Shown here: piece after piece, positions 1 through 34,153 of the stretch
How positions within the stretch are numbered: position 1 is the stretch's first letter
Layout: each line of letters opens with the position of its first letter
Source of the DNA: Porphyridium purpureum
Taxonomy: Eukaryota
Assembly (NCBI GenBank): GCA_008690995.1
Contig: VRMN01000013.1
Location: 310,001 to 374,000, forward strand
DNA: 64,000 nucleotides
Direction of reading: 5' to 3'
Notes under the pieces: model-generated
Seen by the model: the letters and a program-made list of their open reading frames with translations, nothing else
What the model was told of the DNA's origin: nothing
Databases searched by the model: none
Made by a program: the position numbers and the translations under genes

Positions 1-1063
1 ATTGTCCATCGACAACTGCAGGCATGCATCGGCTACTCGGCGTTACCAGAGGTGCTGTACGATTCGAAGCACATTAAGGGGTTTTCCAATGTGATGAATG
101 AGCTTAACCGCAGCGCACAATATGCACCGCGTAAATCAGTCCACTTGCACACGCTGATGTTCTTTCGGCACAAGGCGATGCGACAGCAAGCGCGCACTGC
201 GCGCATGCAGAGAATAGCCTGGTAGGTTTGATCTCCACAGCCAGACTGGAGGGAATTCTGTACTTGGATGAGAAGCGCACGCAACGTCTCGCGCACGGTG
301 GCCATTCGGTTCAGTACGAGCAGGGTAGTGAATCAATGTCATGCAGACGGTTGACGTGATAGTGTCAGTCGACAAGGTTCCTGACCGTGAAGGCCGCGTC
401 GAGTTCCAGTTTGCATAACCTGAGAATGGCTAATCAAGTAATGGGTTTCGCGCCGGGCTGTGCTTGCAGTGATATTAGTTTGTGTCTCTCTGTCACGGGC
501 CTGGCTTTTGACTTGTTTCGCAACGCAAAACTCAGTGATTGATGCTGTTTCAGCGGCCTTCCTGCCGAAGCAGCTCTCTTCTTTTGCCTGAGGACCAGCT
601 GTCTCTCGGCGTCGGCATGACATGAGACTTCCTACTTCTTAAGTACTTCACGCTGCACAATTCGTATTCGATCTGCCTCTTGTCGCAAATTAGAACCCAC
701 CTGTGCGTCCGACACTATCTGTGAAAATGAATCGCTGCCCTCTTCGCTTCCATCAAACCTTGTTTCGATTTTTCTCTTGCAGACATGACTACGAGAGCAT
801 GTTTAGTACACAGCAGCGCGGTGTTGCTTCTTAGAATGCACGTGGGCGAGTCTGCGTGTGTGCGAAAGTGCGTTCAAACACGCTAGAATACAGGGACTCT
901 GCGCACGTGGAGTGTGCGCTTGCGTCACCCACCGTTTCTAACAGAGAAACCCGGTGCACGCCAGTCGATCTGACAGTCCAATCAAGTGCCATCTAACGCG
1001 CGTGAAGGCAACGGAAAGAGAGGGCCTTCTTCCTGAAGAACGTCGCACGATATATCGCCGAGG

Positions 1064-4000
1064 ATGCCGAAAACCAAGTACACGCACAAGCACTCGAAAG
1101 AAAAGCGGCCCCAGAGGTACCGAAAATATGCTCAACATACAAGAGACGTACATGAAGCGGGACGGTCAAGACGCGGCGACGTACATTCAGCGCTGCCAGC
1201 ACCCAGCTCGACATCACGGTCGGGTGAAGCAGCGCTTGCGTTGGTCACGGAACCACAGCGTGTCGCTTGTGTACATTGCGGAATAAGGGGTTCACACGAT
1301 GGGCCATATGAATCTATTGTGGCGGAACGGCACGAATCTGGTCTATGCCCCCATGAAGCTACACTATCAGACGATGGCTCCGCTCCAGCACCCTTATCAG
1401 GCGCCCGTAGTGCGCTTCTACGGGACGCAGATACATTCCAACAGAGAACAGGGCATGGTCCAAGTTGTATGACCGGACCGGTAGCTCGAATTGGTAGTAC
1501 AAACGAACGAAGAACAATGGATGCAGACAACACTTTCGCTGCACGATCTGACGACACAATGGAAATATTCGAGTATCCACAAGAAAATTCCCGTCCTAAT
1601 TCTGACGAAGAGGATTACTTGCCCGAGCTGCCCGAATCTGAAGACGAATTTCAGGCACCTGAAGAAGCAATGAGCGACGACATACGCTTATTTAACGCCA
1701 TTGCGAATCAGCGGACGACGGAGTTTGAACGAGCACTTGCCTCGGTGCCGGATGCAACGACTTATGCGGAGCGTCATGTTCTTCGAAGGCAGAGCGCAGA
1801 CAATTTCTGCCGGGAGATAGAGCTGGCGTGGACAGAAAGTATTCCTGATAGTGCTCGTCAAGGTAATTTTGCTGCAAATATGACTGCGGCTGATACAGAA
1901 CAAATCTGCGGGAATGCAGATCTAAGCTTTCTTGAGCTTGAGCTCACGAAATTTCGTATCGAGATTGAGCAGTGTCTGCGCCAGTCAAGTGGTTTCATCT
2001 CACGTCATGTACATAATACCTTGTTCAAAACGATGCAGCAAATACTTGCAGTCGTTTTACATTACAGAGGAGTTGGTCGGACAACGAGCCAGATAGAAGT
2101 CCACGCACAGGGTGGGCGAGCAACGATTCCGGCAGCGAACACGGACCGCGCACGCATCGGCAGAGAGAGCGCGGAAAACATCACAGAGGCATGTAGAGCT
2201 CTTTTCAGTGCCAACATCAGCACGGCCCTTCATCGGCAGAAGATTTTCATTCCAGGGATTGCGATCCAACAAACACGAATCCCTTTCGGGCGCAATCTAA
2301 AAAGATACCGACCAGAAGGCTTCACAACCGAAATCGCATATCGTGACGCAACCTCTCTGGTTATACGGGACGTGAAACATATCATGCAGATGTACGGGGC
2401 AGACGCATTCCAAATCACGCGTCTAAATTGCGAACTCGGCGCGAACCAGCCACCTGCATGGGTATCTGCTCAAGAAGCATATGACCAGCGTGGCACGGAA
2501 AGGACCGCAAGAGGCGCCCGCCATAGGCTGGCACGTGCACACGTGGAGGAGACAATACGTAAAATGCAAGAGTTCAAGGATCGTCCGGTTGAGGATTTTC
2601 TTCACGACTTTGCCGGAACTGACAGCGCAGTGGCAGGGCAAATGCAGGGACCGGGAATGCAGACGGCAGGTGCGAACGAAAGCGTTGCCAGTTCACCTTT
2701 CGAAGGCTCTGCGCCCGCCGAGAGCGAATCCTTCCGCCACGCTCAAGATGCTTGGTACCTGCGACATGTTTACTCGCGCGTCCTCGAGCATTCATATTTT
2801 AGAGACGAGCGCAACCCGCCCCCACTTATCATCCCAGTGGCCATTTACGCAGACGGTGCGCATATGCACAAAAATGCGCTGCATGAACTGACGCCAATTT
2901 CAATTTCTATCATTCATAGAATGAAGTTTGAACACAATGGAGATCATCGTCTTCCCATGACTGTAGCATGCATGCCGGATGGGACCTTGAACGAATGGCA
3001 GACATTGGACAGTATACGGATGCAGAGCTCAACACAGGCGAGGGCTACAGGCAGAGACATGCCTCAGAACGTTATGAAAGAGTTCCGCAAGTCCATGTAC
3101 CACGGCATCTTTGCCTTTCTTTTCGGTGACTGGTTGCGCGGTGCATGGCACGCTGGGATGCCCTTCTTTTTTGAGCTGTCCGCGCACGGTAAGAGGTGGA
3201 CGTGCATCCCCACGATCTACAATCTTGGCATGGATATGCCAATGGTTGCGCGTCTGTCTTTCACACGTCTTTCAAGACCGAAGGACCAAAAAATGCCATG
3301 TCAGCAGTGCGAAGCCGCTGGTGGCGGTCAGCGGGAGCAACGGCAGGAAGCAAGGCCTGTCGAAAATCAGTCTAGCCAGCAACTGCAAGAGCTGGAGAGA
3401 GCGCATGATCGGAGAGACCGCCCGGATCTGGCTGGCCAGACTATCTGTCGAAAGCGGCCTCGGAACTCAGACCAAGACTACTGGACGTTGTACAACGGTT
3501 TAAACGGACTTCGCTCCGGGTTTCGCTTCGAAGCAGAGACCATCCACGCCATTGAGGTAAATGACATTGTTGCACTTGATGAAATGTCCGTAGACAGACC
3601 GGGTTCTCCTTTGTTCAAGGGTCTCGACGCGTTCCACCCTTGGGGCATTTTTCTCTTTACGTGTGCAGACGCAATGCACGCTTTCAAGAAGCTGCTGTTC
3701 CGCGACTGGGTAACCGTGGGCTTGGAAATGCTGTTGTTGTGTCACAAAGCGAAGCAGGTTGGGCCCGCGTGCGAACAGGAGGAAGAGCATGACTGGTCGG
3801 ATGATAGCCTTATACACGCGTCTTCGGCTCAGACGTCTCGAGTACGTGCTGTGAGCGTGCGCCAGGCCGAAAACACCGCACGCAACCGGTCTGAAAAGGT
3901 AACACACTCCATGTTGGACTCGGCGGCTGGTCGATGGATTAAAATTGAGGCTGTTCGAATGCAGCAAGATCTCACAACAAGAGGACACAACCAATTCCAA

Positions 4001-5584
4001 ATTCCAATGCGCGCCGTACCAGTGACGGATGAGGTCGGAAAAATTGTCGAGAACAAGTATTCTCTCAGCATCTTGTTACGTGTTCTAGTTATCCTTGCGT
4101 CTGGACACACACGTTGCTCAATGGACGGGCGCGTGCTGTCAGGCTGGATTGGGGTCTGCGTTGCCAGCTTAGGCGCGTATCGTTACCTGTACTTGAAGTG
4201 CCCCGGTAAAATGGACATGTACAATGCAGAGTTTTTCTTATCCAGGGTTAGCAAGTGTATGAACAGCATCCGGCAGGAGGGTCCGCAATTTGCAAGGGCT
4301 GTCGGTGATCGACCGAAGTACCATGCGATTCTCCACTTGGCCACAATGGTGCAGTTGCTCGGACGTCAGCGTTTATTTGACGTCTGTGGCGGAGAGTCTC
4401 TGATGAAGTACCTGCGCCGCATCTTTGATCGCCTTCCGGCTCGAAACCTGAATGTGCGCCGTGATCTTGCGCATAAAACAATACTGCAAACTTGCGAAAC
4501 CGATGAAGCGTTTTCATATGCGATTTCTCTGCTTGAGCGTCGAAAAGAAAAGACCGGAAATGGGCTACGCGGTGAATGCACAGGAGAACCGAGCAGTTCG
4601 GCCCAGCAGGCAAACAATACAGGATGTACGCCGAGCGTGCGCGAACACTACGTTTTCTTCTTGACTGGCGACATCCGCACGGTTCTAGACAAAACACAAC
4701 GACGCACAAATGCTGCATCAAACACGCTGACTAGCCACCTATCACTTGATGTGGAGGGTGTGTTCTCATATGTGACATCCAATTTCGATACACGTCCGGA
4801 CGGTTGCTTCATTCAGAGTCTTTCGCGAGGTACGATATGTACCCGTGACCGCGTTGCATTTGCCAGCGATATTCTCGACGCACTGCAGCATGCGTCTCCT
4901 CGGGTGCATTTGGGCGTGCGAGATTTCTTGGAGCGCTCACGCAGGGCTCCAATCATGTTGACGCAGGCTTTCGTACTCCGGAAGTTCAAAGAAGGATGTC
5001 GAACCCAAGTTATGGATCAGATAGCACCTCTGCTTGATGCAGACGCAAACAATCAGGCAGCTGGTTACGAAGAGGACGTTTCGGCTGGACGTACAGAGGC
5101 TCTGCACGACATTTTTGTCTGCTCGCCTACGTATATGGGGCGTCCGCGATACGATTTCATTCAGTATGTCTCTGAGAACGGCTCAAACGATACTCCACGG
5201 TTTGGCGAACTCGTCCTGCTCGCCAACCTGAGTGGAACACGTGGAGTTGCGTTCATCTGTCCATTGGAAACAGAATCGTTCTGCCGAGAACGAAACGCAG
5301 GTGCCGTCTGTCCGTGCCAGCAGATCGCGCAAGTGTTCATACATAGCAAGAGGCGCACGAGAGCGCATGAAATCAACAGGGAACATACACTTCATGATGC
5401 GTGCAATGATTATGGTATCGATTCGCAGAAGCGCAGGTTCCTGATCTGTATATCTGTGGAGTCTATCATTCAGAAGGTCACCGCATTCATGGATGTATCA
5501 CAAAGCCACACATGTCTGCCTCTGGAACAAAAGTACTACATCGTAAGCCCTAATTTATGCGAAGGTGTTGAAACGTACGCGTAG
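1064..5584 (+). CDS. Plavaka / CACTA(CMC)-like DDE transposase, 1506 aa (real start may be the ATG at 1517)
   Basis: Motifs in the order expected for Plavaka/EnSpm-type transposases: IIPVAIYADG...LTPISISI (~2830-2910), GMDMP (~3225), CxxC (MPCQQC), ADAMH (~3665), PKYHAILH...LG...GGES (~4310-4400) and a C-terminal RYDFI...FGELVLL. The ORF is uninterrupted. Confidence 0.75.
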   Translation: MPKTKYTHKHSKEKRPQRYRKYAQHTRDVHEAGRSRRGDVHSALPAPSSTSRSGEAALALVTEPQRVACVHCGIRGSHDGPYESIVAERHESGLCPHEATLSDDGSAPAPLSGARSALLRDADTFQQRTGHGPSCMTGPVARIGSTNERRTMDADNTFAARSDDTMEIFEYPQENSRPNSDEEDYLPELPESEDEFQAPEEAMSDDIRLFNAIANQRTTEFERALASVPDATTYAERHVLRRQSADNFCREIELAWTESIPDSARQGNFAANMTAADTEQICGNADLSFLELELTKFRIEIEQCLRQSSGFISRHVHNTLFKTMQQILAVVLHYRGVGRTTSQIEVHAQGGRATIPAANTDRARIGRESAENITEACRALFSANISTALHRQKIFIPGIAIQQTRIPFGRNLKRYRPEGFTTEIAYRDATSLVIRDVKHIMQMYGADAFQITRLNCELGANQPPAWVSAQEAYDQRGTERTARGARHRLARAHVEETIRKMQEFKDRPVEDFLHDFAGTDSAVAGQMQGPGMQTAGANESVASSPFEGSAPAESESFRHAQDAWYLRHVYSRVLEHSYFRDERNPPPLIIPVAIYADGAHMHKNALHELTPISISIIHRMKFEHNGDHRLPMTVACMPDGTLNEWQTLDSIRMQSSTQARATGRDMPQNVMKEFRKSMYHGIFAFLFGDWLRGAWHAGMPFFFELSAHGKRWTCIPTIYNLGMDMPMVARLSFTRLSRPKDQKMPCQQCEAAGGGQREQRQEARPVENQSSQQLQELERAHDRRDRPDLAGQTICRKRPRNSDQDYWTLYNGLNGLRSGFRFEAETIHAIEVNDIVALDEMSVDRPGSPLFKGLDAFHPWGIFLFTCADAMHAFKKLLFRDWVTVGLEMLLLCHKAKQVGPACEQEEEHDWSDDSLIHASSAQTSRVRAVSVRQAENTARNRSEKVTHSMLDSAAGRWIKIEAVRMQQDLTTRGHNQFQIPMRAVPVTDEVGKIVENKYSLSILLRVLVILASGHTRCSMDGRVLSGWIGVCVASLGAYRYLYLKCPGKMDMYNAEFFLSRVSKCMNSIRQEGPQFARAVGDRPKYHAILHLATMVQLLGRQRLFDVCGGESLMKYLRRIFDRLPARNLNVRRDLAHKTILQTCETDEAFSYAISLLERRKEKTGNGLRGECTGEPSSSAQQANNTGCTPSVREHYVFFLTGDIRTVLDKTQRRTNAASNTLTSHLSLDVEGVFSYVTSNFDTRPDGCFIQSLSRGTICTRDRVAFASDILDALQHASPRVHLGVRDFLERSRRAPIMLTQAFVLRKFKEGCRTQVMDQIAPLLDADANNQAAGYEEDVSAGRTEALHDIFVCSPTYMGRPRYDFIQYVSENGSNDTPRFGELVLLANLSGTRGVAFICPLETESFCRERNAGAVCPCQQIAQVFIHSKRRTRAHEINREHTLHDACNDYGIDSQKRRFLICISVESIIQKVTAFMDVSQSHTCLPLEQKYYIVSPNLCEGVETYA

Positions 5585-6669: not shown

Positions 6670-8190
6670 TCACACAACCGTCCCGATTTCCACAGTGGCT
6701 CGTGCATTCTTAGCAACAATATAGCGTTTGGCCTGATCCACGGACGCCTTGAGGTCCACCTTGACACGCGCTCCTGGATACGGGTCACGATAGTTCTGGA
6801 CCTGCGCATGCGCCGAAACTCTCAACCCGCTTTCGACATATAGTTTGCGACTAAATCTGATACACGACTCGTGCATCGCAACCCACGCGTACGACTGATC
6901 TTGACCTAAAGGGACAAAGAAGCGCACGAGCACGCGTGTTTCTTGTTTCGCACTGGCCGTCCGGACAATAAATACCTGATCAAATTCACTTGAAACATGA
7001 CCGGAATCTAGAATCACAATACCAGGCCAGAACGGATGATTGCCGGCTTTGGCGAAAACGAGCTCCGGATACGAAATGCCGACGGCCTGGGCACAACGAA
7101 TCAACCACGCTCGCACAGACGAAACACGTCGATTGTACGTTTGTCGGCTTAAGTCAATCAGGCGACGTTCTGACCTCACGTGTACCACATTACGTTCCCG
7201 AACGCGGTCCGAATCAGACAATGCGTCGTTTGCCACTTCATCACGCACAAGCTTCCTCACCTTCAAATTAGTTTGTTCATCATCGTCTGAGCCGTCGCTT
7301 TCCTCGCTCACCTGGCCCCGTTTAGAACCATGGAGTACAGGGGAATGACGAAAACCCGGACGGCCTCGTTCGTCCAGCCTTACATTCATTGCTTGTAGTT
7401 CCCTTGCATACACTTCGTTTTGTCGTTCGAGCTCACGTAATCGTCGGAGCACATCATGCAATTCTCGAGTGTAGTCCAGCGCAGCCACTGCTTGTGTTAA
7501 AGCTCGCAGGAGATTCTGTGCGTTGGGCTCTACCTGACCAGCACCAAGATGACGCACACTTCGAGACGACCCTGACAGCGGGGACGCCATATCACGACGT
7601 AACGTCGCATCAATGCCACCATGCTGTCGCTCAGTATCAGGTAAGCCATTACCGAGGTGCTCGGGCTGATACCTTTCTCCTCGCCAACCCGCCACGCCAC
7701 GTCTATCATATTCACGCAATGTTGACGCCCGTATGTTCTCTACGTGTCGAGCGGACTCCTGTAGTCTGTGTTGATGGCCTCCGGCATATGGCGAATAAAA
7801 TTCACGATGCCTAATGCCATGCAAGGGAGGATCCCTTTGTTCTCCACCAAATGAACCTTCGTGACACCTTTCGACCTCGCCATGCGGAAACACACGCCGG
7901 TCCATTTCAACATGACCATGCCTTCCTCCGACACCTTGTCGGATCAGATGATGCTGATCGAAGTTTACGGGACCCTCGATGCATCGACCGTCATAGTTAC
8001 ACTCACCATACCATCCGGCTACCGCCATGGATCGTGCGTACCATCCGGCCTCATCCTCAGATTGTCCGTTGCGTTCGGCCCCATCTAAAGTGTCTATGTG
8101 TTGACCAGCTTCACGTGTCGCACGCGCATCGAGCTCAATATCACCCGAACCAGACGTTTGGCGCGCGGGAGGACAGGAATAATGATTCAT
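6670..8190 (-). CDS. Protein with a C-terminal PWWP domain, a central coiled coil and a low-complexity N-terminus
   Basis: LVFAKAGNHPFWPGIV...VLVRFFV...SYAWV...LKASVDQAK matches the PWWP consensus (~7070-6720). Coiled coil LHDVLRRLRELERQNEVYARELQAM. First ATG at 8190. Confidence 0.8.
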   Translation of the reverse strand: MNHYSCPPARQTSGSGDIELDARATREAGQHIDTLDGAERNGQSEDEAGWYARSMAVAGWYGECNYDGRCIEGPVNFDQHHLIRQGVGGRHGHVEMDRRVFPHGEVERCHEGSFGGEQRDPPLHGIRHREFYSPYAGGHQHRLQESARHVENIRASTLREYDRRGVAGWRGERYQPEHLGNGLPDTERQHGGIDATLRRDMASPLSGSSRSVRHLGAGQVEPNAQNLLRALTQAVAALDYTRELHDVLRRLRELERQNEVYARELQAMNVRLDERGRPGFRHSPVLHGSKRGQVSEESDGSDDDEQTNLKVRKLVRDEVANDALSDSDRVRERNVVHVRSERRLIDLSRQTYNRRVSSVRAWLIRCAQAVGISYPELVFAKAGNHPFWPGIVILDSGHVSSEFDQVFIVRTASAKQETRVLVRFFVPLGQDQSYAWVAMHESCIRFSRKLYVESGLRVSAHAQVQNYRDPYPGARVKVDLKASVDQAKRYIVAKNARATVEIGTVV

Positions 8191-8991
8191 CGTACGAACA
8201 GCCCCAAAACAATACCTCGTTGCTCTCCTCTCGCGCGCGCACACACACACAACGACACACCCAAACACACGCTGCAGCACGTGCGAATGTGATACCAATT
8301 TTGAGATGCGTTTGAACTGGTGGACCTGTTGAAAGCCAAACGACAAACGAATGAAGACTCAAGACTAGAACCTATACCCTCAGGGCCACCGGCTATCGGT
8401 ATCCGATAAGGCGTGCCATAAAGTGCTGCGAACGTTTGCTACTGTCAGTCTGCGGCGCGAACGCGAAGACACTGCGCGTCCGTGGAGATAAAAGGCCTTC
8501 GCATGCAGCTTACTTGGTGCGGTCAACTGTGCTGTTACGATGAACGACACGCGTCAGCAGAGTGAGACGTTTGAACGCACGAAGCATACGACCTCGCAAT
8601 ATTTCAAGCATCAGGCTAAAAAGACAGGTGCGGCAAACGAATTCAACCCTTCAGATTCCAGCTTGCTCCAGATTTTGCACAGCTCAGTACAAATGTGAAA
8701 AGATGCTGGGTAATGTAGCCCTGACATCGGTATTATTGCCAAGAACACTTTTAATGCAAGCATTGGTCGCACGTGCTCAAACCATAATATGATGATAACC
8801 GATTCGGCCGATAGTCTTCATGATACGCTCTCAACTTTTTTAATGTCATTGCAACGGATTTAATACATAATTAAATACATTTGCTGAAGTGACTTCAACT
8901 GTACCGTCAACAATTCATCGTAACCCTTGAGTAACCCTGATATTGTAGGTTTATAACACATTACCTTGTACATTAAGGTTTAGCGCATCCA

Positions 8992-11900
8992 ATGTTTGAA
9001 CTGCACGCCATGTTGCTCGCCGTTGAAAGACAGATGGCGCGACATGCAAACGCAGCCGTCGAGGGCGCAGCGCTGCTCACGCGCGCGCGGGGAAATCCGG
9101 GCGATTACCGTCACTCCCACCGATCAGCACAAGCACGCACGACCTTCCGCGGAGCATGTTGGAAATGCGGGCGCGAGGGCCACACTAGGCGGAATTGTCC
9201 GCAAAACACGGACAAGGGTGGGCATGGAACAGATGGCTCCTCTCCAGTCGGAAGCCTTGGAGCAGCGTGCTTCGCTCTGATGACGAAGTCATACGCGGAC
9301 GCCGCCCGTGCGCATGTGCTTACCAAGACGCAGCCAACGAAATCAACGATTCCGGACGCTCGCTGGATAATTGACTCCGGGGCGTCGAGACACATGACAG
9401 CAAATCGAAACCTTCTTGAGAACATAAGAGCGTGTTCGGAACGCATACGAGTGGCAGACGACCGAGAGGTGTCGGCGTCAGCGGTAGGGGACGCTTGGGT
9501 TTCTAATGTGTTGCTTTCCAATGTACTCTTCGTCCCCGGACTCGCACACAGTCTCATATCTGTTCCTGCGCTCACGGCAGAAGGAGCAAGGGTCAAATTT
9601 GAGCATGACCGCTGCTGCGTCGAAGGCAAAAATGTCAACTGGAAACTGGAAGGAAAGCTGCAAGGTGGACTGTACGCGCTTCGTTCGAGTACCGCTCAAA
9701 CCCGCGCAAAGCTCGAGCACCAAAGGCTGTGTCACCCATCTGATGAATCATTTTGTGACACTTGCGTAAGAGCAAAAGCCGCACGACGCAGCTATCCGGC
9801 ATCAAGCCAGCGAGCAGAGAAACCCCTTGAGCTCGTTCACTCCGACTTGCTCACGATAACACCGCAAGGATTCCGAGGTGAGCGATACGTGGTTACGCTG
9901 CTGGACGAAGCAACTGGGTTGGCGGGTTGCTTCCCGATACGACACAAAAGTGAAACGCTCACCGCTCTGAAAAGCATGGTGCGCGCAATGGAAGCCATGT
10001 GCGGGCATAGCGTTCGGGCGCTTCGCACGGACAAAGGTACTGAGTACGTTAACGCACCCACTCGAGCGTGGGCCGATGCGTCAGGAATACGCCTTGAATC
10101 TGGACCTCCGTTCGTGCCGCAGATGAACGGAAGCGCGGAACGCTTCAATCGAACACTACTCGAGCGAGTCCGTGCGGTCGTACTGGCGAAGGGACTGAAC
10201 AAACATTTGTGGCCGGAATTGGCCCCGGCAGTCTGTTACGTTCTCAATCGAAGCCCCAATACACGAGGAACAGTTCCTATCGTGGCCTGTGGAAAATCGG
10301 GCGATTTGGACCACTTACGTGTACTCGGTTCTCGCGCATATGTTTACGAAAGGGGCCCAGACAAGCTCGACGCCCGAGCTCGCGCAGGTATCCTGGTCGG
10401 CTACGGTGAAAGACACAAAGTGTACAGAATCTTGCTGAATGGAACACAAACAGTTGTCGAGGCAACGAATGTGAGAATAATAGAGGAAGACCAGGCACAT
10501 GAGCTGGAGGCGACGCACGCCGAGACGGAAACAGCGACCGGACTTGTACACAACAACGGACCAGATGTACCAAGATTACTGCACGAATCCGGCGGAGACA
10601 CAGCTGACAATACCGGTCTGGCCAGCGAATGCCGACAAGTCACGACGGAAGAGCATGCCTGGACGCTTGATGAGGATGAGGCGATGGCCAATTCGCTCAT
10701 CTCCAATGGGTGGAACTTCGAGAGAGCCGCGGAACACGATGATCTGCGTCGGAGGTCACCTCTGGAGATCCTCCAGCGAGCACGTGATCTTGGCCTCACC
10801 GAACAGAACTTTCGCGAAATGCTGTACGTGAATGAGAGCGAAGAAGACGCTGGAGCACAACGCGGACGCAGTGCGAGCGAAGAGCAAGGTTTGACGCACA
10901 CGATGACGCCACGATATCAGCATGAACGAGGCGAACCAGTGCAGCAGGACTCGCCGCCACCCGCGCCGAGGCGTTCAGAACGTCTCCGGCGACCACCCGC
11001 GCGTTTTTGGAACAGCCCGGAAGATGCGCACTTATCTGTCGTGATGGCTACGGAGCCAACTCCGTGCGCCTATGTGACACGGTTAATCACGCAGAAGGAA
11101 GAGCTTGAAACTATGGAGGCAAAGGAGGCAATCAAGAAGGAATTGGGCGCCATGATCAGCATGTCCGTATTCGACCCAGACTCCGTCATCGAATATGACG
11201 AGGCTCGAAAACATATCGGTGCGCAATTTGTACGAGGCAAACTAATCGTATCTGAGAAATTCGTGGAGCAGGACGCTAATCGGCGAGTTCTGAAAGCTCG
11301 GCTTGTAGCACAAGGATGCCTCGTCTACGACTGCAATGGACATCTCGTGCGAGACAATACATTCCAGTACGAAAAGCCCATCGGGTTGCGATCAGCCAGA
11401 ATCGCCATTGCGCATGGAAGGATCGCAGGAGATTTGGCAACGTTCGACGTAGACTCTGCGTATCTTTCGACGGAACTGAAGGGGCCGAAAACGTTCCTGG
11501 AATTGCCAATGGAAGCACGCCCTGAGTCGTGGGGAATTCGCTTCGCTCGACCCGTCGTCCCACTGATTAAAGCGCTATATGGGTTGCCGCGGTCAGGCGC
11601 TGACTTTGGGGCGGATGCAAGGCAGAAGATTATCAAGCAAGGGTGGGCTCAGGCATCCGGAGATATGAACATGTACTTTAAAGCTTTCGGATGCGCGAAG
11701 GTCCTCATGGCTCTTTACGTGGACGACGGTCTGCTTGCGGGCGACCCGGAGGCAGTCGACAAGGCCATTCTGGAGATCTGCGCCATCTTCAAAATATCCA
11801 AAGCAATTAAGAGAATGTCGAAGGGTGGAAACGTTACCTTCCTGGGTATGACGGTAGACGCGAGCCCGGACGCATGGTCATTGCACAGTAACGGCTATTC

Positions 11901-13062
11901 GACATTAATACTGAACAACGCGCTTCCCAAACTTGGGTATCGATTCGAAAATGGGAGCTGGGTGTGTCGCAAAGCAAAAACACCGCTCAGTGATGTCCAG
12001 GCAAGCTGTGAGACCCAGCGCTCATCAGGAACCGTTGCTTGTGAGCCATGGATTCGCACTACTGTCGGCCAGCTCATGTGGCTTGCAAGAGCTGCCAGGC
12101 CTGATCTTGCCCACGCCGCTGCGTGGGTGGCGCGGTACGTCGACGCTTGGGACGACCGCGCTTCGTCGGCGCTCGACCGAGTACTGCGATACCTGTTGTG
12201 GCACAAAAACGCTAGCGTTGTGTATCCGCGCCCACCGGAGGCAGACAAAAACGGTCTACTCTCATTTCGACTGGAGGTATTTTGTGACGCAGATTTCGCG
12301 GGATGTCTGAGTACTCGACGCTCGACTACAGGCTTTGTGGTTTTTGCCCGATCGGGGGCGCTTGTGTATTTGTTGGAGTGGCACTCTAGCCGGCAGCGAT
12401 CATGCAGCACAAGCACAACTGAAGCTGAGCTTGCGGCAATGGCTAGTTCACTGAAGATTGGTTTAATGCCTGCCTGGTTGATGCAAGAAGATCTGATGCC
12501 ACCAAATGACAAAAGAGGTCCAATGCGCGCAATCTTGCGCTGCGATAATGAGGCTGCGATTGCATGCGTGAGGAGAGGGTGGTCAGATAAGCTACTGCAT
12601 ATGTCAAAAACACATGGAGTCGAAGTCGCGTGGATCCACGAAGTTACCGAGTTAGCAGGGCTGGCGTTACTGGTGAGGATTGATACAAAGGCGAACACTG
12701 CGGATATGTTTACCAAGGCTTTAAGCGCTGACAAGTTCCTCCGACATCGAGACCAGGTTGTGCAGGTGGCTGCTGCCAGCGAGGGGGCGTGTGAAGATAT
12801 CACTGTACACAGCCACCTTATGCAGGAGCCGGAGCACGTGGGGTCGCGAACCGCGACGTGTCCTGCGGATGGCGCAAAAGGCGGAAAGGGCGTGACGACC
12901 CCTTGCCGTGCTGGCAGGGCGTCGCAACCCGTCCGGGCTGCCGTGCAATTACTCTCGGGGACAAGCACGTCCGCACATGCAGCGCGTGTTGCCTTCACCT
13001 GCCCTGCAGGGCACACCGTCGCATTATATAAAGAGCGCCTCGCCCCACGATTGCATGCGTAG
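8992..13062 (+). CDS. Ty1/copia polyprotein (end of Gag with zinc knuckle, PR, IN, RT, RNase H), 5'-truncated
   Basis: CWKCGREGHTRRNC knuckle; WIIDSGASRHM protease; HQRLCH..CDTC plus a D,D35E integrase (SD..TDKGTEY..QMNGSAER); RT motifs KARLVAQG, LYGLPRSG and YVDD; RNase H motifs DADFAG, EAEL, CDN and ADMFTK. Confidence 0.95.
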   Translation: MFELHAMLLAVERQMARHANAAVEGAALLTRARGNPGDYRHSHRSAQARTTFRGACWKCGREGHTRRNCPQNTDKGGHGTDGSSPVGSLGAACFALMTKSYADAARAHVLTKTQPTKSTIPDARWIIDSGASRHMTANRNLLENIRACSERIRVADDREVSASAVGDAWVSNVLLSNVLFVPGLAHSLISVPALTAEGARVKFEHDRCCVEGKNVNWKLEGKLQGGLYALRSSTAQTRAKLEHQRLCHPSDESFCDTCVRAKAARRSYPASSQRAEKPLELVHSDLLTITPQGFRGERYVVTLLDEATGLAGCFPIRHKSETLTALKSMVRAMEAMCGHSVRALRTDKGTEYVNAPTRAWADASGIRLESGPPFVPQMNGSAERFNRTLLERVRAVVLAKGLNKHLWPELAPAVCYVLNRSPNTRGTVPIVACGKSGDLDHLRVLGSRAYVYERGPDKLDARARAGILVGYGERHKVYRILLNGTQTVVEATNVRIIEEDQAHELEATHAETETATGLVHNNGPDVPRLLHESGGDTADNTGLASECRQVTTEEHAWTLDEDEAMANSLISNGWNFERAAEHDDLRRRSPLEILQRARDLGLTEQNFREMLYVNESEEDAGAQRGRSASEEQGLTHTMTPRYQHERGEPVQQDSPPPAPRRSERLRRPPARFWNSPEDAHLSVVMATEPTPCAYVTRLITQKEELETMEAKEAIKKELGAMISMSVFDPDSVIEYDEARKHIGAQFVRGKLIVSEKFVEQDANRRVLKARLVAQGCLVYDCNGHLVRDNTFQYEKPIGLRSARIAIAHGRIAGDLATFDVDSAYLSTELKGPKTFLELPMEARPESWGIRFARPVVPLIKALYGLPRSGADFGADARQKIIKQGWAQASGDMNMYFKAFGCAKVLMALYVDDGLLAGDPEAVDKAILEICAIFKISKAIKRMSKGGNVTFLGMTVDASPDAWSLHSNGYSTLILNNALPKLGYRFENGSWVCRKAKTPLSDVQASCETQRSSGTVACEPWIRTTVGQLMWLARAARPDLAHAAAWVARYVDAWDDRASSALDRVLRYLLWHKNASVVYPRPPEADKNGLLSFRLEVFCDADFAGCLSTRRSTTGFVVFARSGALVYLLEWHSSRQRSCSTSTTEAELAAMASSLKIGLMPAWLMQEDLMPPNDKRGPMRAILRCDNEAAIACVRRGWSDKLLHMSKTHGVEVAWIHEVTELAGLALLVRIDTKANTADMFTKALSADKFLRHRDQVVQVAAASEGACEDITVHSHLMQEPEHVGSRTATCPADGAKGGKGVTTPCRAGRASQPVRAAVQLLSGTSTSAHAARVAFTCPAGHTVALYKERLAPRLHA

Positions 13063-27210: not shown

Positions 27211-27400
27211 GTACACTGAGGGGTACACTGAGGGGTACACTGAGGGGTACACTGAGGGGTACACTGTTGTAGGGTGGAGTACACTGGTGTACGGTTGAGT
27301 ACGGTGGGGTACGGTTGAGTACGGTGGAGTACGGTGGAGTACAGTGAGTACGGTAGAGTACAGTGAGATACAGTGAGTACGGTGGAGTACAGTGAGATAC
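27211..27400. repeat. Composite minisatellite: GTACACTGAGGG x~4.5, then ~10-bp GAGTAC(G/A)GTG-type units
   Basis: Direct tandem repeats, nearly every unit containing GTAC. Confidence 0.9.
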
Positions 27401-28203
27401 AAACTTTAAATTCTCGCACGCTTGATGATGACAAGCGCACGAACCCGGATGACACAACCCTTCTCAGATGACCGAACCCCAGCAACACGACGCACACAGC
27501 ACAGAGAACACAACCACACGACGCACACAACACAGACGACGAATACCCGGGGCGTGGAAAATCCAACGTATAGGGCCTCTACTATTGCCCTTCGCGTCGG
27601 CACAGACAGCACCGGTCTCGACAGGGGCAGGGTGTCGTAACGGACAAAGCCGCCGTCTGCCTTCAGTGCTCCAAGAGCACCGAAACCCCCCAGACACGAT
27701 GTGCTGCTGGCTCTGCTACACAGGCTCAGCAAAAGGCCCTACGCCTTCCGACGACCACGCCCAGGCACCCGACACCAAAGAACAACTCTTCCTTTATTCT
27801 CTGTGTCCTACTCCCTTGCCTCTACTTCTTCCGCTCTCAAGAAATCCGGGGAACCGCACGGGCCCGCGCCCATTATATACCCCGCCGTCCTTGCTGTCCT
27901 TGACGCGGAAGGGAGAAATTATTTCTCCCAAAAGGCTGGGCTTTCCTCCGTTCGTTCCACGGAACGAAGCCACAGCCAGCCACGTCAGCAAGCGGCTCAA
28001 TGGGTGCCGGCCGGCCGCCAAGCGGCTCCTGCTTCCCTCGGACACGCGACTCCGGCTCCTCGGGGCGAAAGACAACAATGCACAAAACCAGAGGTACAGG
28101 GTAAAAAACCACGCGGGCGAAAAAGCCCCTGTACCTCAAACAATTCCGAGACGCCGTACCTCCGGGTGTACACCCAGGGCGTCTCTCGGACCGGAACACT
28201 TTT

Positions 28204-29000
28204 CGTGGAATTTTAGGGTTCCGCCCCGAGAGACGCCGTAGGGTTTTGAGTACAAAACCCTAGAAAGTTCTATGATGAAAGATTGTTCGAGAAGCGTGAT
28301 GATCTCGGACCTGCGAAATGTTTGTCATTGTCGTTTTGTGTGGCCTTGTGCAAAGGTCAAAGGCCGGCCGAAGCTTCTGGATTCGTTCTTGACGCGCCCT
28401 CCCGGCCATTTTCCGGATACGTGGCCGGCTGTGGTTGCGAGTTGTGGAACGAATCAAAACCTGTGGTGGAAATTCGTCCTGTTGGAGAAATTTGTTCTCC
28501 CGTCCTTGCTGGAAAGAGCAAGGACGAAGGGTATAAAAGGACGAAGGGGCAAGCTGGTTCCCAGGAATTTCCAGGTCAAGGTAGAAGAAGAGGTAAGGGC
28601 AAATAGAATAAAAAGAGAATTGGTTAGTTGGATTGAGGCAGTCGTTGGAAGACTTGGGTTGGATTTGCGGGAGAGGCACGCTAGCGTGTTGTGCGAGCGG
28701 ATATCGGTCTGGAGTGTTTTTAAAAAGGCAGCTGGGGTTTAAACGTACCTTCCATCACCCTTCACTTGTCAAGACCGGTCCACTCCCTCTCGTAGTCCCC
28801 TATAAGTTGAATTTTCTGTCCTCTCTTCCTTTCTAGCCACTTTTCTCTGATTGTCCTGCTTGTCCTTCCGTTCGTTTCGGTGTGTCGGTTCGTCGTCGGT
28901 TTGTCAGTTTCCGGGGTGTGGCGGTTTCCAGTTCCTGTTATCGGTGAAGCGGTCCGGTTTTGTTGATTCGGTTACAAAGCAGAAAGGGAGAAATTCCAAG
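28204..29000 (+). repeat. 5' LTR (797 bp; inner TGGAATTT...AAATTCCA at 28206-28998)
   Basis: Direct repeat of 33168-33964. The only mismatch I noticed is G28952 vs A33916. Confidence 0.97.
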
Positions 29001-29018
29001 TGGTATCATCGCCCGGTT
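29001..29018 (+). promoter_or_regulatory. Primer-binding site, probably initiator tRNA-Met
   Basis: TGGTATCATCGCCCGGTT directly after the 5' LTR; resembles the plant iMet PBS TGGTATCAGAGC. Confidence 0.8.
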
Positions 29019-29029
29019 GTTTGGAGAAA

Positions 29030-29977
29030 ATGGAAAGCCATGAAATGGAAATGAATGTCCCGCAGGAGAATGCGGCATGGATTGAGGCAGCTAATCAGCT
29101 GCATGCGCGCATTGCGGGACAGGAGATGATGATGGCACAAGTGCAGGAAGCGAATCGTAACCTCCATGAAATGATGCATGTTTTGTTGCGCCAGCAGACC
29201 GTGGCGTCTGGGTCTGGTGACAACGATCGTGCCATGGCCGCGTTAATTGGGCGCAGTTTGAGAAAGTTTGATGGTCAGCGTGACAAGCTCGTTGTCAATG
29301 AATGGCTGATGCGAATGAAGAGCGACCTGGATATCTGCATGCCCGCAGATGCTTTGGACTCGCAGAAAGTGATTGTTGCAAGTCGCTTTTTCGAGAGGGA
29401 CGCAGCGCTGCTTTGGGCAGCTCGTCCGGAGGAGCAGAGAAAGGGCCTTGCAGAGGCCGGATGGGATGCGTTCGCAAACTTCGTGCGCACAGCGTTTGAG
29501 CCGCCGCAGGCGCATTTGACAGCGCGCACCAATCTGTATCAGTTGAAGCAAGGGAAAATGACGGTCGCAGAATTTGAGCAGAATCTCAGGATGACAGCGT
29601 TATCAGTTGAAGATGTGACAGATGCAGAACTGAACACCATCTTCACGCTGGGCTTGAAGGAGAAACTGCGTATTGAGGTGGCCCGTCAGGACACAAGGAC
29701 CTTGGAAGAATCACTGAAAGTTGCGTTGGCAGCTGAGCAGGTTGCAAAGTTCGGAGGAGATATGAGTCAAGTGATCAAGAACTCGTCATCGACTCATAGC
29801 AGGGCGTTCTCGTCGCATTCTGGTAGCGCACCAATGGATTTGGGAGCCATGGACAAGCGGAAGTCTGGCAAGACCAAAGTGAAGTGTTACCATTGTGGAG
29901 AACGTGGACACATTAAGCCCAAATGCCCTAAATTGAAGGAGCGCTTGGCAGGTGGTCCGCCAGAGCCGGAAAACTAA
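29030..29977 (+). CDS. Gag (Ty3/gypsy-type capsid domain plus CCHC zinc knuckle)
   Basis: KFDG...EWL, AALLW, WDAF...F, LYQLKQGKMTVAEF, FTLGLK..LR, APMDLG and CYHCGERGHIKPKC. Confidence 0.9.
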   Translation: MESHEMEMNVPQENAAWIEAANQLHARIAGQEMMMAQVQEANRNLHEMMHVLLRQQTVASGSGDNDRAMAALIGRSLRKFDGQRDKLVVNEWLMRMKSDLDICMPADALDSQKVIVASRFFERDAALLWAARPEEQRKGLAEAGWDAFANFVRTAFEPPQAHLTARTNLYQLKQGKMTVAEFEQNLRMTALSVEDVTDAELNTIFTLGLKEKLRIEVARQDTRTLEESLKVALAAEQVAKFGGDMSQVIKNSSSTHSRAFSSHSGSAPMDLGAMDKRKSGKTKVKCYHCGERGHIKPKCPKLKERLAGGPPEPEN

Positions 29978-30029
29978 GACCTCGAGAGCCAAGACAGGAG
30001 GAGATCTCGAGGGGAATGGAGCCTCCTGT
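29968..30029 (+). promoter_or_regulatory. -1 programmed ribosomal frameshift signal (GGAAAAC plus H-type pseudoknot)
   Basis: Slippery G GAA AAC directly before the gag TAA. Stem 1 is CCTCGAGA (29980-87) / TCTCGAGG (30005-12). Stem 2 is ACAGGAGG (29994-30001) / CCTCCTGT (30022-29). Confidence 0.85.
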
Positions 30030-33000
30030 AATGGGTGTTGTGGAAGGTGTTGCGCACGAGGGTGCGAGGTCAAGGCTCTTCTACAAACATGGGAAAGTGA
30101 GTGGTTCAAAAATCGACTTCTTGATTGACAGTGGAGCGTCGCATAATTTCCTGGGGTCCCGATTCTTGGACGCAAGCGTAAAGTCCAGTTGCGATGAATG
30201 CATGGTCGAGCTTGCGGGAGGACAGAGAATGAAGGTGCACGGCCCCATTGTGCTTGCGGTGGACCTCGGTTTCTGGATAGGGAACGTCGAGTTTTATATC
30301 GGTCCCATTCGTATGGATGCCATCTTAGGGTGGAAATGGCTCAAGATGGTGAATCCTAAGATTGATTGGCAGAAGGGACTGATGGAAACGAGGCCCGAGG
30401 GGAAGGAAATATGCACGTTGGAAAATGTTGAAGAAGTGGTTCCCGAGCTTGACGGGAAAAATCAGAGCGTGGCTGCTTCGGAACACGAGTTGACTCACAT
30501 GCCTATGCAAAGAGACTGTGAGACGTGTGTCGTGGCGAAGATAAAGCGACGCCCGGCCCGAAGGCTGGAGAAAGATGTCAGTGCATTGTCATTCAATGAT
30601 GAAGTCGGAATTGACTTGGTGGAGCCTGGGCGAAATGTGAAGTCGGTAGATGGTTCAAAGTTTATTTTGACGCATATCGACAGAGCCACAGGATGGGTGA
30701 CATTGGCGGGGCTACGTGCGAAAACCCACACGGCGGTTGCGGACGCTTGGAAAAGTGTGCAAGCCGGGAGAGGATGGCCGAAGGTTTTGCGAACGGATGA
30801 TGGGAATGAGTTCAAGGGAGATGTGGGGAGACTGGTGCGTGAACACCTCATAAAGCACGAGGTGGGGATTCCGTACAGGCCAAACAGTCATGCTGAACAG
30901 GAGCGGTTTCACCACACGCTGAATCAGGGAATCCGTGCGAATCTTGTGCAGGCCGGACTCGGGAAGCGTTGGTTCATGCACGCCGCGCAGCATTTTGCGT
31001 TCATGACGAATAGACTTCACGTGGGCAGGAAGTCTGGAAAGACGCCGTTTGAATTACGACATGGTGAAAAATGGTCGCCGAGAAATCTTAGTTTGCCATT
31101 CGGGTGCAAGGTGGTCTACAAAGATGATCAGCCTGACAATAAGTATGCACCGCGAGGAAAAGTTGGCATTCTCGTCGGCGTTGGAGAGCATCCGATGGCA
31201 ATTTTGGTGCTTCCTCGGGATGACTGGACGAGTGAGACCCCAAAAGTAATTCGCACTCAGGATTTTAAGGCATTTACCCATGAGTTCCCTTTAAAGGGAA
31301 TTGAACGAGAGATGGTGAGCCTGAGCCAGCAGGAAGAGTTGCCAGAAGTGGACGAACCATCCGCGGTTGAAGCGGTGCAGGACTTGGATCGTCGTATCGA
31401 TGCTCTCAGAGCTAGAGAAGCGGAGCTTGAGAAAGAGATCGAGGCATTGAAAGTGAGAGTGGTTGACGAAGAACGGGCAGCAGGCACGGGTGGTCCAGTG
31501 ACGATCCCACAGTTGAACTTAACGACTTTGCTGAAAACTGGAGCGGCGTTGGCGTCTGAGCAAGGACGAGCCGCGATGGAAAAAGAAGTCAAATCCATGC
31601 TGAAATTTGGGGTATGGGATGAGAGTCCCTTGACGCTGGAGGAGGCCCGGAGGCAACCTGGTGCTCGTTTCGTACGCACACATTTCATTTTCGGTCTGAA
31701 ATTTGCTGAGATGCCGGAAGAATTTCGCAAGGTGAAGTGCCGCTTGGTGGCCGGGGGAAACAGGATATGGGGGTCCGATGGAGCTGCGACGAATGACATT
31801 TTTGATTATGAGACGCCTGCTGGTTTGTCAGCTATCCGAATGATAATAGCTGTGGCTGCAATTCTGGGCCTTCAGATTGTTAGTTTCGACATCAGCTCGG
31901 CATACCTCCATGCGGACCTGTCTGGGCCACCTACGTTTGCATACTTACCGCGTGAAATTTGTGATTCAAAAGACACAGTAGTCAGGCTGAGAAAGGCGCT
32001 GTATGGCTTGCCCAGGAGCGGCTCGGATTTCTCACAAGATGCTCGGAGGAGATTGCAAAAGTTCCAGTGGAAGCTCGTGCATGGTGAAAAGAATGTGTAC
32101 GTCCGGAGAAATGCTGCAAGTTCGTCAGTTGCGTTGTTGGCTCTGTACGTGGATGATGGTCTATTAGCCTGTCGAGAGGAGGAACGCCCAGGAATCATCG
32201 AAGAATTGAAACAAGAGTTTCTCATAGAAAAAGCACCAGAACTATTGACGGAAGGAGGATCCTTGAGATTCCTGGGGACGAGCATTTCCCTCAAAAATGG
32301 GAGCGTGAGTTTGGCGAATCAAGAGTATCAAGATGTGGTCATTCGGGAATTTGAGCAGGATATTAGACGCGTATTGCGTGCCGTGAAGTCACCATCTGAG
32401 AAGCTAGATGGCGAGGAAGTTCTGAATTATCAAGTCATCTGGAAGACTTTGAAAGTAAGAGAACACGTCGGGAGGCTGATGTGGCTCGCCAGAACGGTTC
32501 GACCTGATATTGCGTATGCAGTCGGTATGATTGCCCGGTACGTTGACAAGTGGAATGTGGCAGCAGAAAGGCTGCTCGTACGAGTCGTGCAGTATTTGAA
32601 AACACCTCGGGAAGCATTGGAGTATCACGTGTTGGGGAATCTCAAGGAAGGCATCAGAGGGGTGAACATTCTTGGATACACGGATGCTGACTTTGCTGGT
32701 TGTCCAGAGAGTCGTGTGTCGACTTCTGGAAGAGCAACGTACTTAGTTGCTGGAGATTACAAGTACCTAGTGGATTGGTCTTCAAGAAAGCAGCGTTTCG
32801 TGAGCTCGTCGACTTCAGAGTCGGAGCTGGCCGCCCTAGAGGAAACTGTGCAACTCTCGTTGTTTCCTGCATTGTCTTTCTTGCGAAGTATACGTGACGG
32901 AGAGTTCTCGGTGATTTTGATGTGTGACAATCAAGCTGTGATGCGAGCAATAGAGATGGGGTACTCGCCAAAGTTGCATCATATGGCGATAACCCGAGCA

Positions 33001-33180
33001 ACAGATTTGGCCTGGTTGCATCAGGTGTGCGAAAAGCAGAAACTTGTGAAACTGGCATTTGTGAAGACGGACGAAAATGTGGCGGACTTAATGACCAAGG
33101 CCTTATTTCCGGAGGGCCACATTAAGTGCTGGGAGAAGTTACGCGTCCCTCAGACCGGAAGGAGGAGCGTGGAATTTTAG
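29968..33180 (+). CDS. Pol (PR-IN-RT-RNase H) in the -1 frame relative to gag; stop codon lies inside the 3' LTR
   Basis: PR: FLIDSGASHNF...DAILGWKWL. IN: HELTH..CETC, DLVE, TDDGNEF, ERFH. RT: KCRLVAGG, LYGLPRSG, YVDD. RNase H: DADFAG, ESEL, CDN, ADLMTK. The frame is open from 29917 and the first ATG is at 30016. Confidence 0.95.
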   Translation, partial: GKLRPREPRQEEISRGMEPPVMGVVEGVAHEGARSRLFYKHGKVSGSKIDFLIDSGASHNFLGSRFLDASVKSSCDECMVELAGGQRMKVHGPIVLAVDLGFWIGNVEFYIGPIRMDAILGWKWLKMVNPKIDWQKGLMETRPEGKEICTLENVEEVVPELDGKNQSVAASEHELTHMPMQRDCETCVVAKIKRRPARRLEKDVSALSFNDEVGIDLVEPGRNVKSVDGSKFILTHIDRATGWVTLAGLRAKTHTAVADAWKSVQAGRGWPKVLRTDDGNEFKGDVGRLVREHLIKHEVGIPYRPNSHAEQERFHHTLNQGIRANLVQAGLGKRWFMHAAQHFAFMTNRLHVGRKSGKTPFELRHGEKWSPRNLSLPFGCKVVYKDDQPDNKYAPRGKVGILVGVGEHPMAILVLPRDDWTSETPKVIRTQDFKAFTHEFPLKGIEREMVSLSQQEELPEVDEPSAVEAVQDLDRRIDALRAREAELEKEIEALKVRVVDEERAAGTGGPVTIPQLNLTTLLKTGAALASEQGRAAMEKEVKSMLKFGVWDESPLTLEEARRQPGARFVRTHFIFGLKFAEMPEEFRKVKCRLVAGGNRIWGSDGAATNDIFDYETPAGLSAIRMIIAVAAILGLQIVSFDISSAYLHADLSGPPTFAYLPREICDSKDTVVRLRKALYGLPRSGSDFSQDARRRLQKFQWKLVHGEKNVYVRRNAASSSVALLALYVDDGLLACREEERPGIIEELKQEFLIEKAPELLTEGGSLRFLGTSISLKNGSVSLANQEYQDVVIREFEQDIRRVLRAVKSPSEKLDGEEVLNYQVIWKTLKVREHVGRLMWLARTVRPDIAYAVGMIARYVDKWNVAAERLLVRVVQYLKTPREALEYHVLGNLKEGIRGVNILGYTDADFAGCPESRVSTSGRATYLVAGDYKYLVDWSSRKQRFVSSSTSESELAALEETVQLSLFPALSFLRSIRDGEFSVILMCDNQAVMRAIEMGYSPKLHHMAITRATDLAWLHQVCEKQKLVKLAFVKTDENVADLMTKALFPEGHIKCWEKLRVPQTGRRSVEF
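33157..33167 (+). promoter_or_regulatory. Polypurine tract GGAAGGAGGAG
   Basis: Directly 5' of the 3' LTR. Confidence 0.9.
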
Positions 33181-33964
33181 GGTTCCGCCCCGAGAGACGC
33201 CGTAGGGTTTTGAGTACAAAACCCTAGAAAGTTCTATGATGAAAGATTGTTCGAGAAGCGTGATGATCTCGGACCTGCGAAATGTTTGTCATTGTCGTTT
33301 TGTGTGGCCTTGTGCAAAGGTCAAAGGCCGGCCGAAGCTTCTGGATTCGTTCTTGACGCGCCCTCCCGGCCATTTTCCGGATACGTGGCCGGCTGTGGTT
33401 GCGAGTTGTGGAACGAATCAAAACCTGTGGTGGAAATTCGTCCTGTTGGAGAAATTTGTTCTCCCGTCCTTGCTGGAAAGAGCAAGGACGAAGGGTATAA
33501 AAGGACGAAGGGGCAAGCTGGTTCCCAGGAATTTCCAGGTCAAGGTAGAAGAAGAGGTAAGGGCAAATAGAATAAAAAGAGAATTGGTTAGTTGGATTGA
33601 GGCAGTCGTTGGAAGACTTGGGTTGGATTTGCGGGAGAGGCACGCTAGCGTGTTGTGCGAGCGGATATCGGTCTGGAGTGTTTTTAAAAAGGCAGCTGGG
33701 GTTTAAACGTACCTTCCATCACCCTTCACTTGTCAAGACCGGTCCACTCCCTCTCGTAGTCCCCTATAAGTTGAATTTTCTGTCCTCTCTTCCTTTCTAG
33801 CCACTTTTCTCTGATTGTCCTGCTTGTCCTTCCGTTCGTTTCGGTGTGTCGGTTCGTCGTCGGTTTGTCAGTTTCCGGGGTGTGGCGGTTTCCAGTTCCT
33901 GTTATCGGTGAAGCGATCCGGTTTTGTTGATTCGGTTACAAAGCAGAAAGGGAGAAATTCCAAG
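33168..33964 (+). repeat. 3' LTR (797 bp)
   Basis: Direct repeat of 28204-29000, directly after the PPT. Confidence 0.97.
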
Positions 33965-34153
33965 CTTTTAATCCATGACAAAGGGTACACTAGGATGTAT
34001 TAAAAAAAGAGTTTAAAAAAGAAGGAATAATTAATGCGGTGGATGGGAGTTTGAGCGGGTGCGCCACGAGCGGGACAAGGGGTGGTGCGCGAGGGGGGAT
34101 GGGGTGGAGTGGGCCGTGGCCATGGCGCGGTGGGCTGGTTGAAAGCGGCTGGT

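Follow-up and report, generated by a model that had tools for sequence, protein, structure and literature searches.

In the genome of Porphyridium purpureum, an intact long terminal repeat (LTR) retrotransposon combines parts of two superfamilies. It occupies positions 28204-33964 of the stretch analysed here, 64,000 nucleotides of contig VRMN01000013.1 (assembly GCA_008690995.1, positions 310,001 to 374,000 of the forward strand; hereafter the window, whose numbering we use throughout). The element is a real and young mosaic: its Gag and protease (PR) are of the Ty3/gypsy type by sequence, its integrase (IN), reverse transcriptase (RT) and RNase H (RH) are copia-type, and by all its parts it is a full member of neither superfamily. 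Gypsy-type gag and protease are joined to an RVT_2-type RT in five P. purpureum families: the focal one, its sister P0003, and P0079, P0081 and P0234. The focal element probably goes back to an old recombination event in which the copia gag-protease block gave way to one of gypsy origin. An earlier note, made from the letters of the DNA, had proposed such a hybrid on the basis of short motifs, all of which we found where it had placed them.

The gag open reading frame (ORF; 29030-29977, + strand, 315 aa) encodes a long N-terminal helix, a Ty3/gypsy-type capsid (about 29252-29743) and one CCHC knuckle (29885-29926). Pfam matched Retrotrans_gag (E 4.6e-9), Ty3_capsid (E 1.3e-8) and zf-CCHC, all over the cut-off, and listed no copia gag family for the focal Gag. 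Against the PDB, the top match of a six-row gag profile was Ty3 Gag (E 1.5e-7, spanning capsid and knuckle), ahead of dArc1 and PEG10; the Copia virus-like particle protein matched at the knuckle only. The Atlas neighbours of the gag belong to Retrotrans_gag and Ty3_capsid families. The predicted capsid, with a mean predicted local distance difference test (pLDDT) score of 68, had dArc1, Ty3 and PEG10 on top in Foldseek and Copia at rank 29; in VIA it aligned to PEG10 at Z 13.3 (root-mean-square deviation 2.2, 84 aligned) and to the Copia capsid at Z 11.3 (6.1, 154 aligned).

Reciprocal hidden Markov model (HMM) searches separated the two types of gag. They covered 81 gypsy loci, pulled from genome contigs by a gypsy RT motif and apparently eukaryotic sequence inside metagenome-assembled genomes, and 104 copia-type proteins, two of which were also in the training set. 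At 15 bits or more, the hybrid gag profile found 5 of the 81 gypsy loci and 0 of the 104 copia-type proteins, and the copia gag profile 0 and 67, respectively. A profile built from gypsy rows gave 37-58 bits to six hybrid gags, with the top copia gag at 21.7; the focal Gag scored 54 bits with the gypsy profile and 0 bits with the copia one. In profile-profile comparison the hybrid gag reached 98.6% against gypsy gag over 153 columns and 16% against copia gag, the gypsy reference gags and proteases having first been chosen with hybrid profiles.

The pol ORF (29932-33180, +, 1082 aa stop to stop) opens with a gypsy/retropepsin-type protease at 30070-30390 (+), with its catalytic motif at 30121-30150 and an ILG-type motif at 30316-30342. 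Pfam assigned to it Asp_protease_2 (E 3e-4) and gag-asp_proteas (E 5e-4), gypsy-type families that both fell below the curated cut-off, and found no Pol_BBD in the pol ORF. DDI/ASPRV1 was the best PDB match of a five-row polyprotein profile for this region, and the Atlas neighbours are RVP-type families. In the reciprocal searches the hybrid protease profile reached 15 bits in 15 of the 81 gypsy loci and 0 of the 104 copia-type proteins, and the copia protease profile in 0 and 80. The gypsy-row profile gave 26-36 bits to five hybrid proteases, the top copia-type protease scoring 12.9, and hybrid against gypsy protease gave 98.3% in profile-profile comparison. The protease tree unites the five hybrids in one clade (96/94), beside 24 gypsy rows and against 24 copia-type rows (100/95). 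Its best topology nests them inside gypsy (98/95), a placement that is not formally established.

The enzymes behind the protease are copia-type. Their order, PR-IN-RT-RH, is that of copia, with the integrase upstream of RT and not after RNase H. The divergent copia-type integrase (30484-31290, +) has a compact HX3HX6CX2C finger (30484-30528), a D-D-E triad at about 30613, 30796 and 30901 and an SH3-like part (31141-31179); its closest solved relative is Ty1 integrase (five-row profile against the PDB, E 1.1e-9). The RT and RNase H lie at 31576-33105 (+). Pfam found RVT_2 (E 1.7e-18), SH3_retrovirus weakly, and no RVT_1 match in the pol ORF. The focal RT is 27% identical to that of a standard copia element and 17% to a gypsy RT, and in trees it groups with copia against gypsy (100/100); the first RT tree was a quick one of 63 rows, from which a 380-aa minimum dropped none. 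In the RT-RNase H tree the hybrids fall in a divergent copia-type clade, separate from standard copia (100/100), a lineage that also contains metagenome elements. The integrase tree has three groups: gypsy (100/99), standard copia together with the group of a neighbouring element at about 9 kb (100/99), and the divergent lineage, to which every hybrid belongs (93/90). The per-domain searches thus bear out what the earlier note had read from motifs: gag and protease score as gypsy and not as copia, and integrase precedes a copia-type RT and RNase H.

Between integrase and RT, a coiled-coil-like linker (31372-31470, +) stands at the place of the sister family's Myb-like domain. Such a Myb-like domain follows the integrase in P0003 (residues 860-909), P0082, P0094, P0101 and P0244 (Pfam E 9e-5 to 1e-2, in no case above the cut-off), and a zf-CW domain has the same position in two distant relatives. 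These domains are possible targeting modules, in place of which the focal element has the coiled coil.

The gag and pol ORFs overlap, with pol in the -1 frame relative to gag. Directly 5' of the gag stop and in the gag frame lies the slippery heptamer G GAA AAC (29968-29974, +), of a type that supports -1 slippage. Five nucleotides further on begins a predicted H-type pseudoknot (29980-30029, +), with stem 1 at 29980-87/30005-12 and stem 2 at 29994-30001/30022-29, each of 8 Watson-Crick pairs. A comparable pair of stems occurred in 1 of 5000 dinucleotide shuffles and at 0 of 3000 positions inside pol, under a rule fixed after the site had been seen. Three gags of the family end in Glu-Asn-stop. 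A heptamer and a predicted pseudoknot at the gag stop make a -1 frameshift likely. No splice joint across the gag-pol region was listed in one recorded and two presumed RNA runs, which is not proof; contigs of RNA run X19 cover gag and parts of pol and show neither expression level nor absence of DNA. In the public gene models P0002, P0003 and P0072, pol either begins with an ATG inside the ORF or is fused to a gag that lacks the knuckle, with the reading continued into the LTR; these are likely artefacts of the overlapping-ORF junction.

The five hybrid families came from a search of representatives, Pfam scans of 60 of the 150 best pol representatives, and cluster look-ups; a Ty3-type gag and RVT_2 stood together in 2 of the 60 scanned. 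P0003 is 77% identical to the focal element in integrase and 71% in RT; for P0079, P0081 and P0234 the identities are 34-40% and 35-36%. In P0079 and P0081 a single predicted polyprotein runs from gag to RNase H. When 188 RVT_2-type proteins were searched with gypsy-only profiles, the gag was found in P0079 and P0081 and the protease in P0079, P0081 and P0088, all from P. purpureum; two further gag scores of 16-17 bits look like noise. A gag from Logan, P0075 (57%), goes with that of the focal family. Among the 188 proteins, in a metagenome scan and in word-index searches, no full hybrid was confirmed outside P. purpureum. The metagenome scan yielded 33 loci at 23-32% identity, many without their 5' part, and a gypsy-type gag or protease in none of the 33; scans of viral contigs with the RT, with a related gag and with a gypsy RT pattern gave nothing usable.

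Might the element be a gypsy front joined to a copia back by faulty assembly, or a dead nested insertion? Nested insertions do occur here, the focal element itself lying inside a sister solo LTR, and the gene models P0001 and P0044 have duplicated pol parts. Against this, a single PR-IN-RT-RH ORF runs unbroken between two matching LTRs that are flanked by a target duplication, and individual contigs of 4224-4227 bases cover the whole interior in runs from at least 3 studies. There are also the pol clusters at 90%, with 16 members for the focal family and 17 for its sister, and the two families with gag to RNase H in one predicted protein. An artefact has next to no chance of being the explanation, and the spanning contigs and the repeated build rule it out.

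The focal element is recently inserted. Its 5' LTR (28204-29000, +, 797 bp) and 3' LTR (33168-33964, +) differ at 1 of 797 bases, and copies of CTTTT flank it as a target-site duplication (28199-28203 and 33965-33969, +). It sits 8 bases into a solo LTR of P0003, whose main part (27404-28203, - strand) ends in AG next to a 5-bp duplication at 27399-27403 and whose first 8 bases (33970-33977, -) start with CA-TG next to the duplication at 33978-33982. Copy ends were taken from contigs of public sequencing runs, which show presence and not absence. In these, copies of the sister LTR elsewhere have a single CTTTT at this site (loose ends behind 28203, 4 of 4 runs), and contigs spanning exactly 28204-29000 occur in runs X3 and X1; none of those listed bridges the focal element's own insertion junction. 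The pol protein is 99-100% identical to P. purpureum records. The recent activity that the earlier note had claimed from intact ORFs and near-identical LTRs is further supported by the 16 pol sequences at 90% identity or more and by 9 distinct right flanks.

A primer-binding site (29001-29018, +) abuts the 5' LTR; it starts TGGTATCA, which we take to be of the initiator-methionine type, and the 64-kb window has no tRNA genes. At the other side a polypurine tract (33157-33167, +) abuts the CG that starts the 3' LTR, 13 bases into which pol has its stop. A TATA-like box in the 5' LTR (28532-28538, +) lies about 30 bases upstream of the deepest X19 contig (28564-28980), a hint only, as contigs cannot show a transcript start.

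The LTRs end in CG...AG, with a TG...CA two bases inward. The flanks agree as a 5-bp duplication only with the outer CG...AG ends, all 9 right flanks start after AG, and none of the loose ends listed in public-run contigs starts after the inner CA. Since the target duplication fits nowhere but outside CG...AG, we rejected the alternative of TG...CA ends next to bases present by chance. The solo LTR of P0003 has the comparable form CA-TG...AG with its own 5-bp duplication, and other copies of it adjoin the same polypurine tract. In the focal element the integrated ends coincide with the borders of the primer-binding site and the polypurine tract, as expected for a non-trimming integrase, and the position of the ends outside the inner TG...CA suggests an integrase without 3' trimming. 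According to PMC8487063, 3' processing is not needed by Ty1 integrase and is needed by Ty3 and retroviral integrases; a terminal TG-CA is required in Ty1 (PMC2939329). The odd ends may be a consequence of the swap, or may be common to the integrase lineage as a whole. CTTT starts 4 of the 9 distinct right flanks, and the duplication of the sister solo LTR is TTTGT, which may point to a preferred kind of target.

The case for a swap rests on the other members of the divergent lineage, which have copia-type gag and mostly a copia-type protease motif. A nine-row gag profile of these relatives gave 97% against copia (183 columns) and 3% against gypsy; their proteases mostly have an LLS-like copia-type motif, and their protease profile gave 97% against standard copia. 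One such member, P0103/P0243, is recorded from P. purpureum, so an unswapped relative exists in the same species. The integrase tree nests the hybrids among copia-gag relatives, and placing them beside gypsy is rejected in approximately unbiased (AU) tests (p-AU 0.02). The group of the 9-kb element shows module swapping in the same genome, separately. The exchange of a gag-protease module between superfamilies, as the earlier note had it, thus stands in its module types and as the best-supported origin, but its direction is not formally proven, and it is old and common to five families, so the focal copy is not itself a fresh hybrid.

No swap would be needed if a deep copia-type branch had kept an ancestral gag-protease shared with gypsy and retroviruses, and other copia elements had derived theirs later. 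We regard this as unlikely. ILG-type proteases and Ty3-like capsids are common outside copia; in the protease tree the proteases of the divergent lineage stand between gypsy and standard copia, and their profile gave 82% against gypsy. Against retention, besides the integrase test and the nesting of the hybrid proteases in gypsy, the best concatenated tree joins the hybrids to three copia-gag members (82/92), and the gags of the divergent lineage score as copia, giving no sign of an intermediate.

Several results weigh against the old exchange that we prefer, some of them by speaking for retention. The RT root with a gypsy outgroup is unsettled, and the best tree puts a hybrid family, P0234, first. 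In the concatenation of IN, RT and RH, a clade of all copia-gag elements without hybrids is not rejected (p-AU 0.13), and the swap topology has a support of only 53/31. No close gypsy donor was found: word-index searches with gag and gag-protease gave only Porphyridium records, P0075 and two weak gypsy-type gags. The separate trees suggested in the earlier note group protease with gypsy and make integrase and RT copia-type, but the gag tree is mostly open, and AU tests on the protease tree, an alignment of 116 columns with long-branch warnings, leave standing both a position of the hybrids outside gypsy (p-AU 0.405) and one with the divergent copia lineage (p-AU 0.102). Retention is not rejected by the tests on protease, on RT or on IN+RT combined. 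Weak gypsy-type Pfam matches also occur in three divergent-lineage proteases with a copia-type motif (P0158, P0128 and P0115). The choice of gypsy references with hybrid profiles favours the match, and PEG10 outscores the Copia capsid by only 2 Z units, so the fold alone is not decisive. Finally, we infer rather than observe the frameshift, the priming by a tRNA, the absence of trimming and any mobility at the present day.

On the reading of an old exchange, the origin would lie in a single event, a template switch or a DNA recombination, with its breakpoint between protease and integrase; several families would then have arisen by long divergence. In its life cycle, the 5' LTR would drive one RNA, on which most ribosomes would end after Gag, while Gag-Pol would come from the minority that slip by -1 on the heptamer, ahead of the pseudoknot. 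Packaging of the RNA would fall to the gypsy-type capsid, and release of the copia-type enzymes to the gypsy-type protease. Reverse transcription would be primed by a tRNA at the primer-binding site and at the polypurine tract, and the finished cDNA ends would be joined without removal of two bases, giving CG...AG ends and a 5-bp duplication.

The neighbouring element at 9 kb (8977-13062, +) is truncated at its 5' side and has no LTR pair. Its ORF matches the copia protease family Pol_BBD (E 1.4e-15), rve and RVT_2 in Pfam. The earlier note had taken it as a copia with which to contrast the focal protease and had seen its RT and RNase H as similar. The similarity is confirmed at 36% identity over 558 aa, and the 9-kb RT-RNase H falls among the hybrids in the divergent lineage. 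It serves neither as a plain copia control nor as the copia partner in the exchange, being itself a second mosaic, with standard copia protease and integrase on a divergent-lineage RT-RNase H. The integrase groups with standard copia (100/99), and a topology that ties the integrases of its group to the hybrids is rejected (p-AU 2e-64). In the relatives P0237, P0242 and P0244 of the 9-kb element, the gag too is standard copia. Its polypurine tract (12781-12791) is followed by CG and then TG, and a stretch at about 10630-10780 resembles the Myb-like domain region, with no Pfam match. Elsewhere in the window, a 1515-aa ORF (1037-5584, +) with no Pfam or NCBIfam match and a PWWP-domain ORF (6670-8358, -) stand tail to tail; the pair is possibly a DNA-transposon-like unit.

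Taken together, we lean towards seeing these families as a living lineage across the copia/gypsy boundary. A gypsy particle, made of capsid, protease and -1 frameshift, would be combined with copia-type enzymes and with untrimmed cDNA ends joined at G and not at CA; with the 9-kb mosaic, at least two module swaps would have occurred on one RT lineage within a single small algal genome. Alternatively, the families would be witnesses of a copia ancestor before the loss of a gypsy-like gag-protease. Classification of LTR superfamilies rests on RT and domain order, presuming that gag and pol are inherited as a unit. A lineage with a gypsy particle and copia enzymes, still active after diverging deeply, would mean that the pair of capsid and protease is separable from the pair of RT and integrase. 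It would offer a natural system for asking which demands a capsid and a protease make on what they carry, and whether 3' processing and the CA rule are dispensable for an integrase. Retention, if true, bears on how the copia and gypsy lines split. Pipelines that demand TG...CA ends or read RT alone would miss or mislabel these families.

Has this build already been catalogued, for example as a Copia entry of Repbase or in the red-algal GalEa/PyRE10G group? The closest precedent, PyRE10G of Porphyra yezoensis, is reportedly a copia-order element, described by Peddigari and colleagues in 2008 (J Mol Evol 66:72), with an integrase called gypsy-like, and is said to have been filed later under GalEa. 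It and the focal element would both be red-algal copia-order elements with a gypsy-like module. Public records label the proteins of the hybrid families as Copia or TNT 1-94 polyprotein, and GalEa-like elements are reported from Porphyridium cruentum and Porphyra in PMC3587641. However, the GalEa marks given there (primer-binding site, finger HX4HX30CX2C and TG...CA ends) are absent from the focal element, whose gypsy-like parts are gag and protease and whose integrase falls with copia. In the full-text literature, with subscription journals, supplementary tables, Repbase and GyDB outside the scope, we found no description of an element that joins gypsy gag and protease to a copia domain order. 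A prior catalogue entry is improbable.

Other known systems share single traits with the focal element. Gmr1-like gypsy elements (PMC3587641) also combine gypsy-type gag and protease with an integrase upstream of RT, but their RT is gypsy, whereas the focal RT is copia-type. Ends other than TG...CA are described for Drosophila errantiviruses (PMC5408687, PMC3601003) and for the diatom elements CoDi3.2, 4.2 and 4.3 (PMC2806351); the focal element differs from them in having an inner TG...CA exactly two bases inside and ends that equal the borders of the primer-binding site and polypurine tract. With Ty3/gypsy (Metaviridae, including Ty3 and the domesticated PEG10 and Arc capsids) it shares the capsid, the single knuckle, the ILG-type protease and a gag that overlaps pol and has a slippery heptamer; near the gag ends of several reference gypsy loci stands G GGA AAC. 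Its RT, RNase H and integrase, however, are not gypsy, and the integrase precedes RT. With Ty1/copia (Pseudoviridae) the focal element shares the PR-IN-RT-RH order, an RVT_2-type RT, a Ty1-like integrase with an SH3-like part, a 5-bp duplication and, as in Ty1, a likely absence of 3' trimming. It differs from them in its gypsy-type gag and protease, its CG...AG rather than TG...CA ends, its predicted -1 frameshift with a pseudoknot and its compact HX3HX6CX2C finger.

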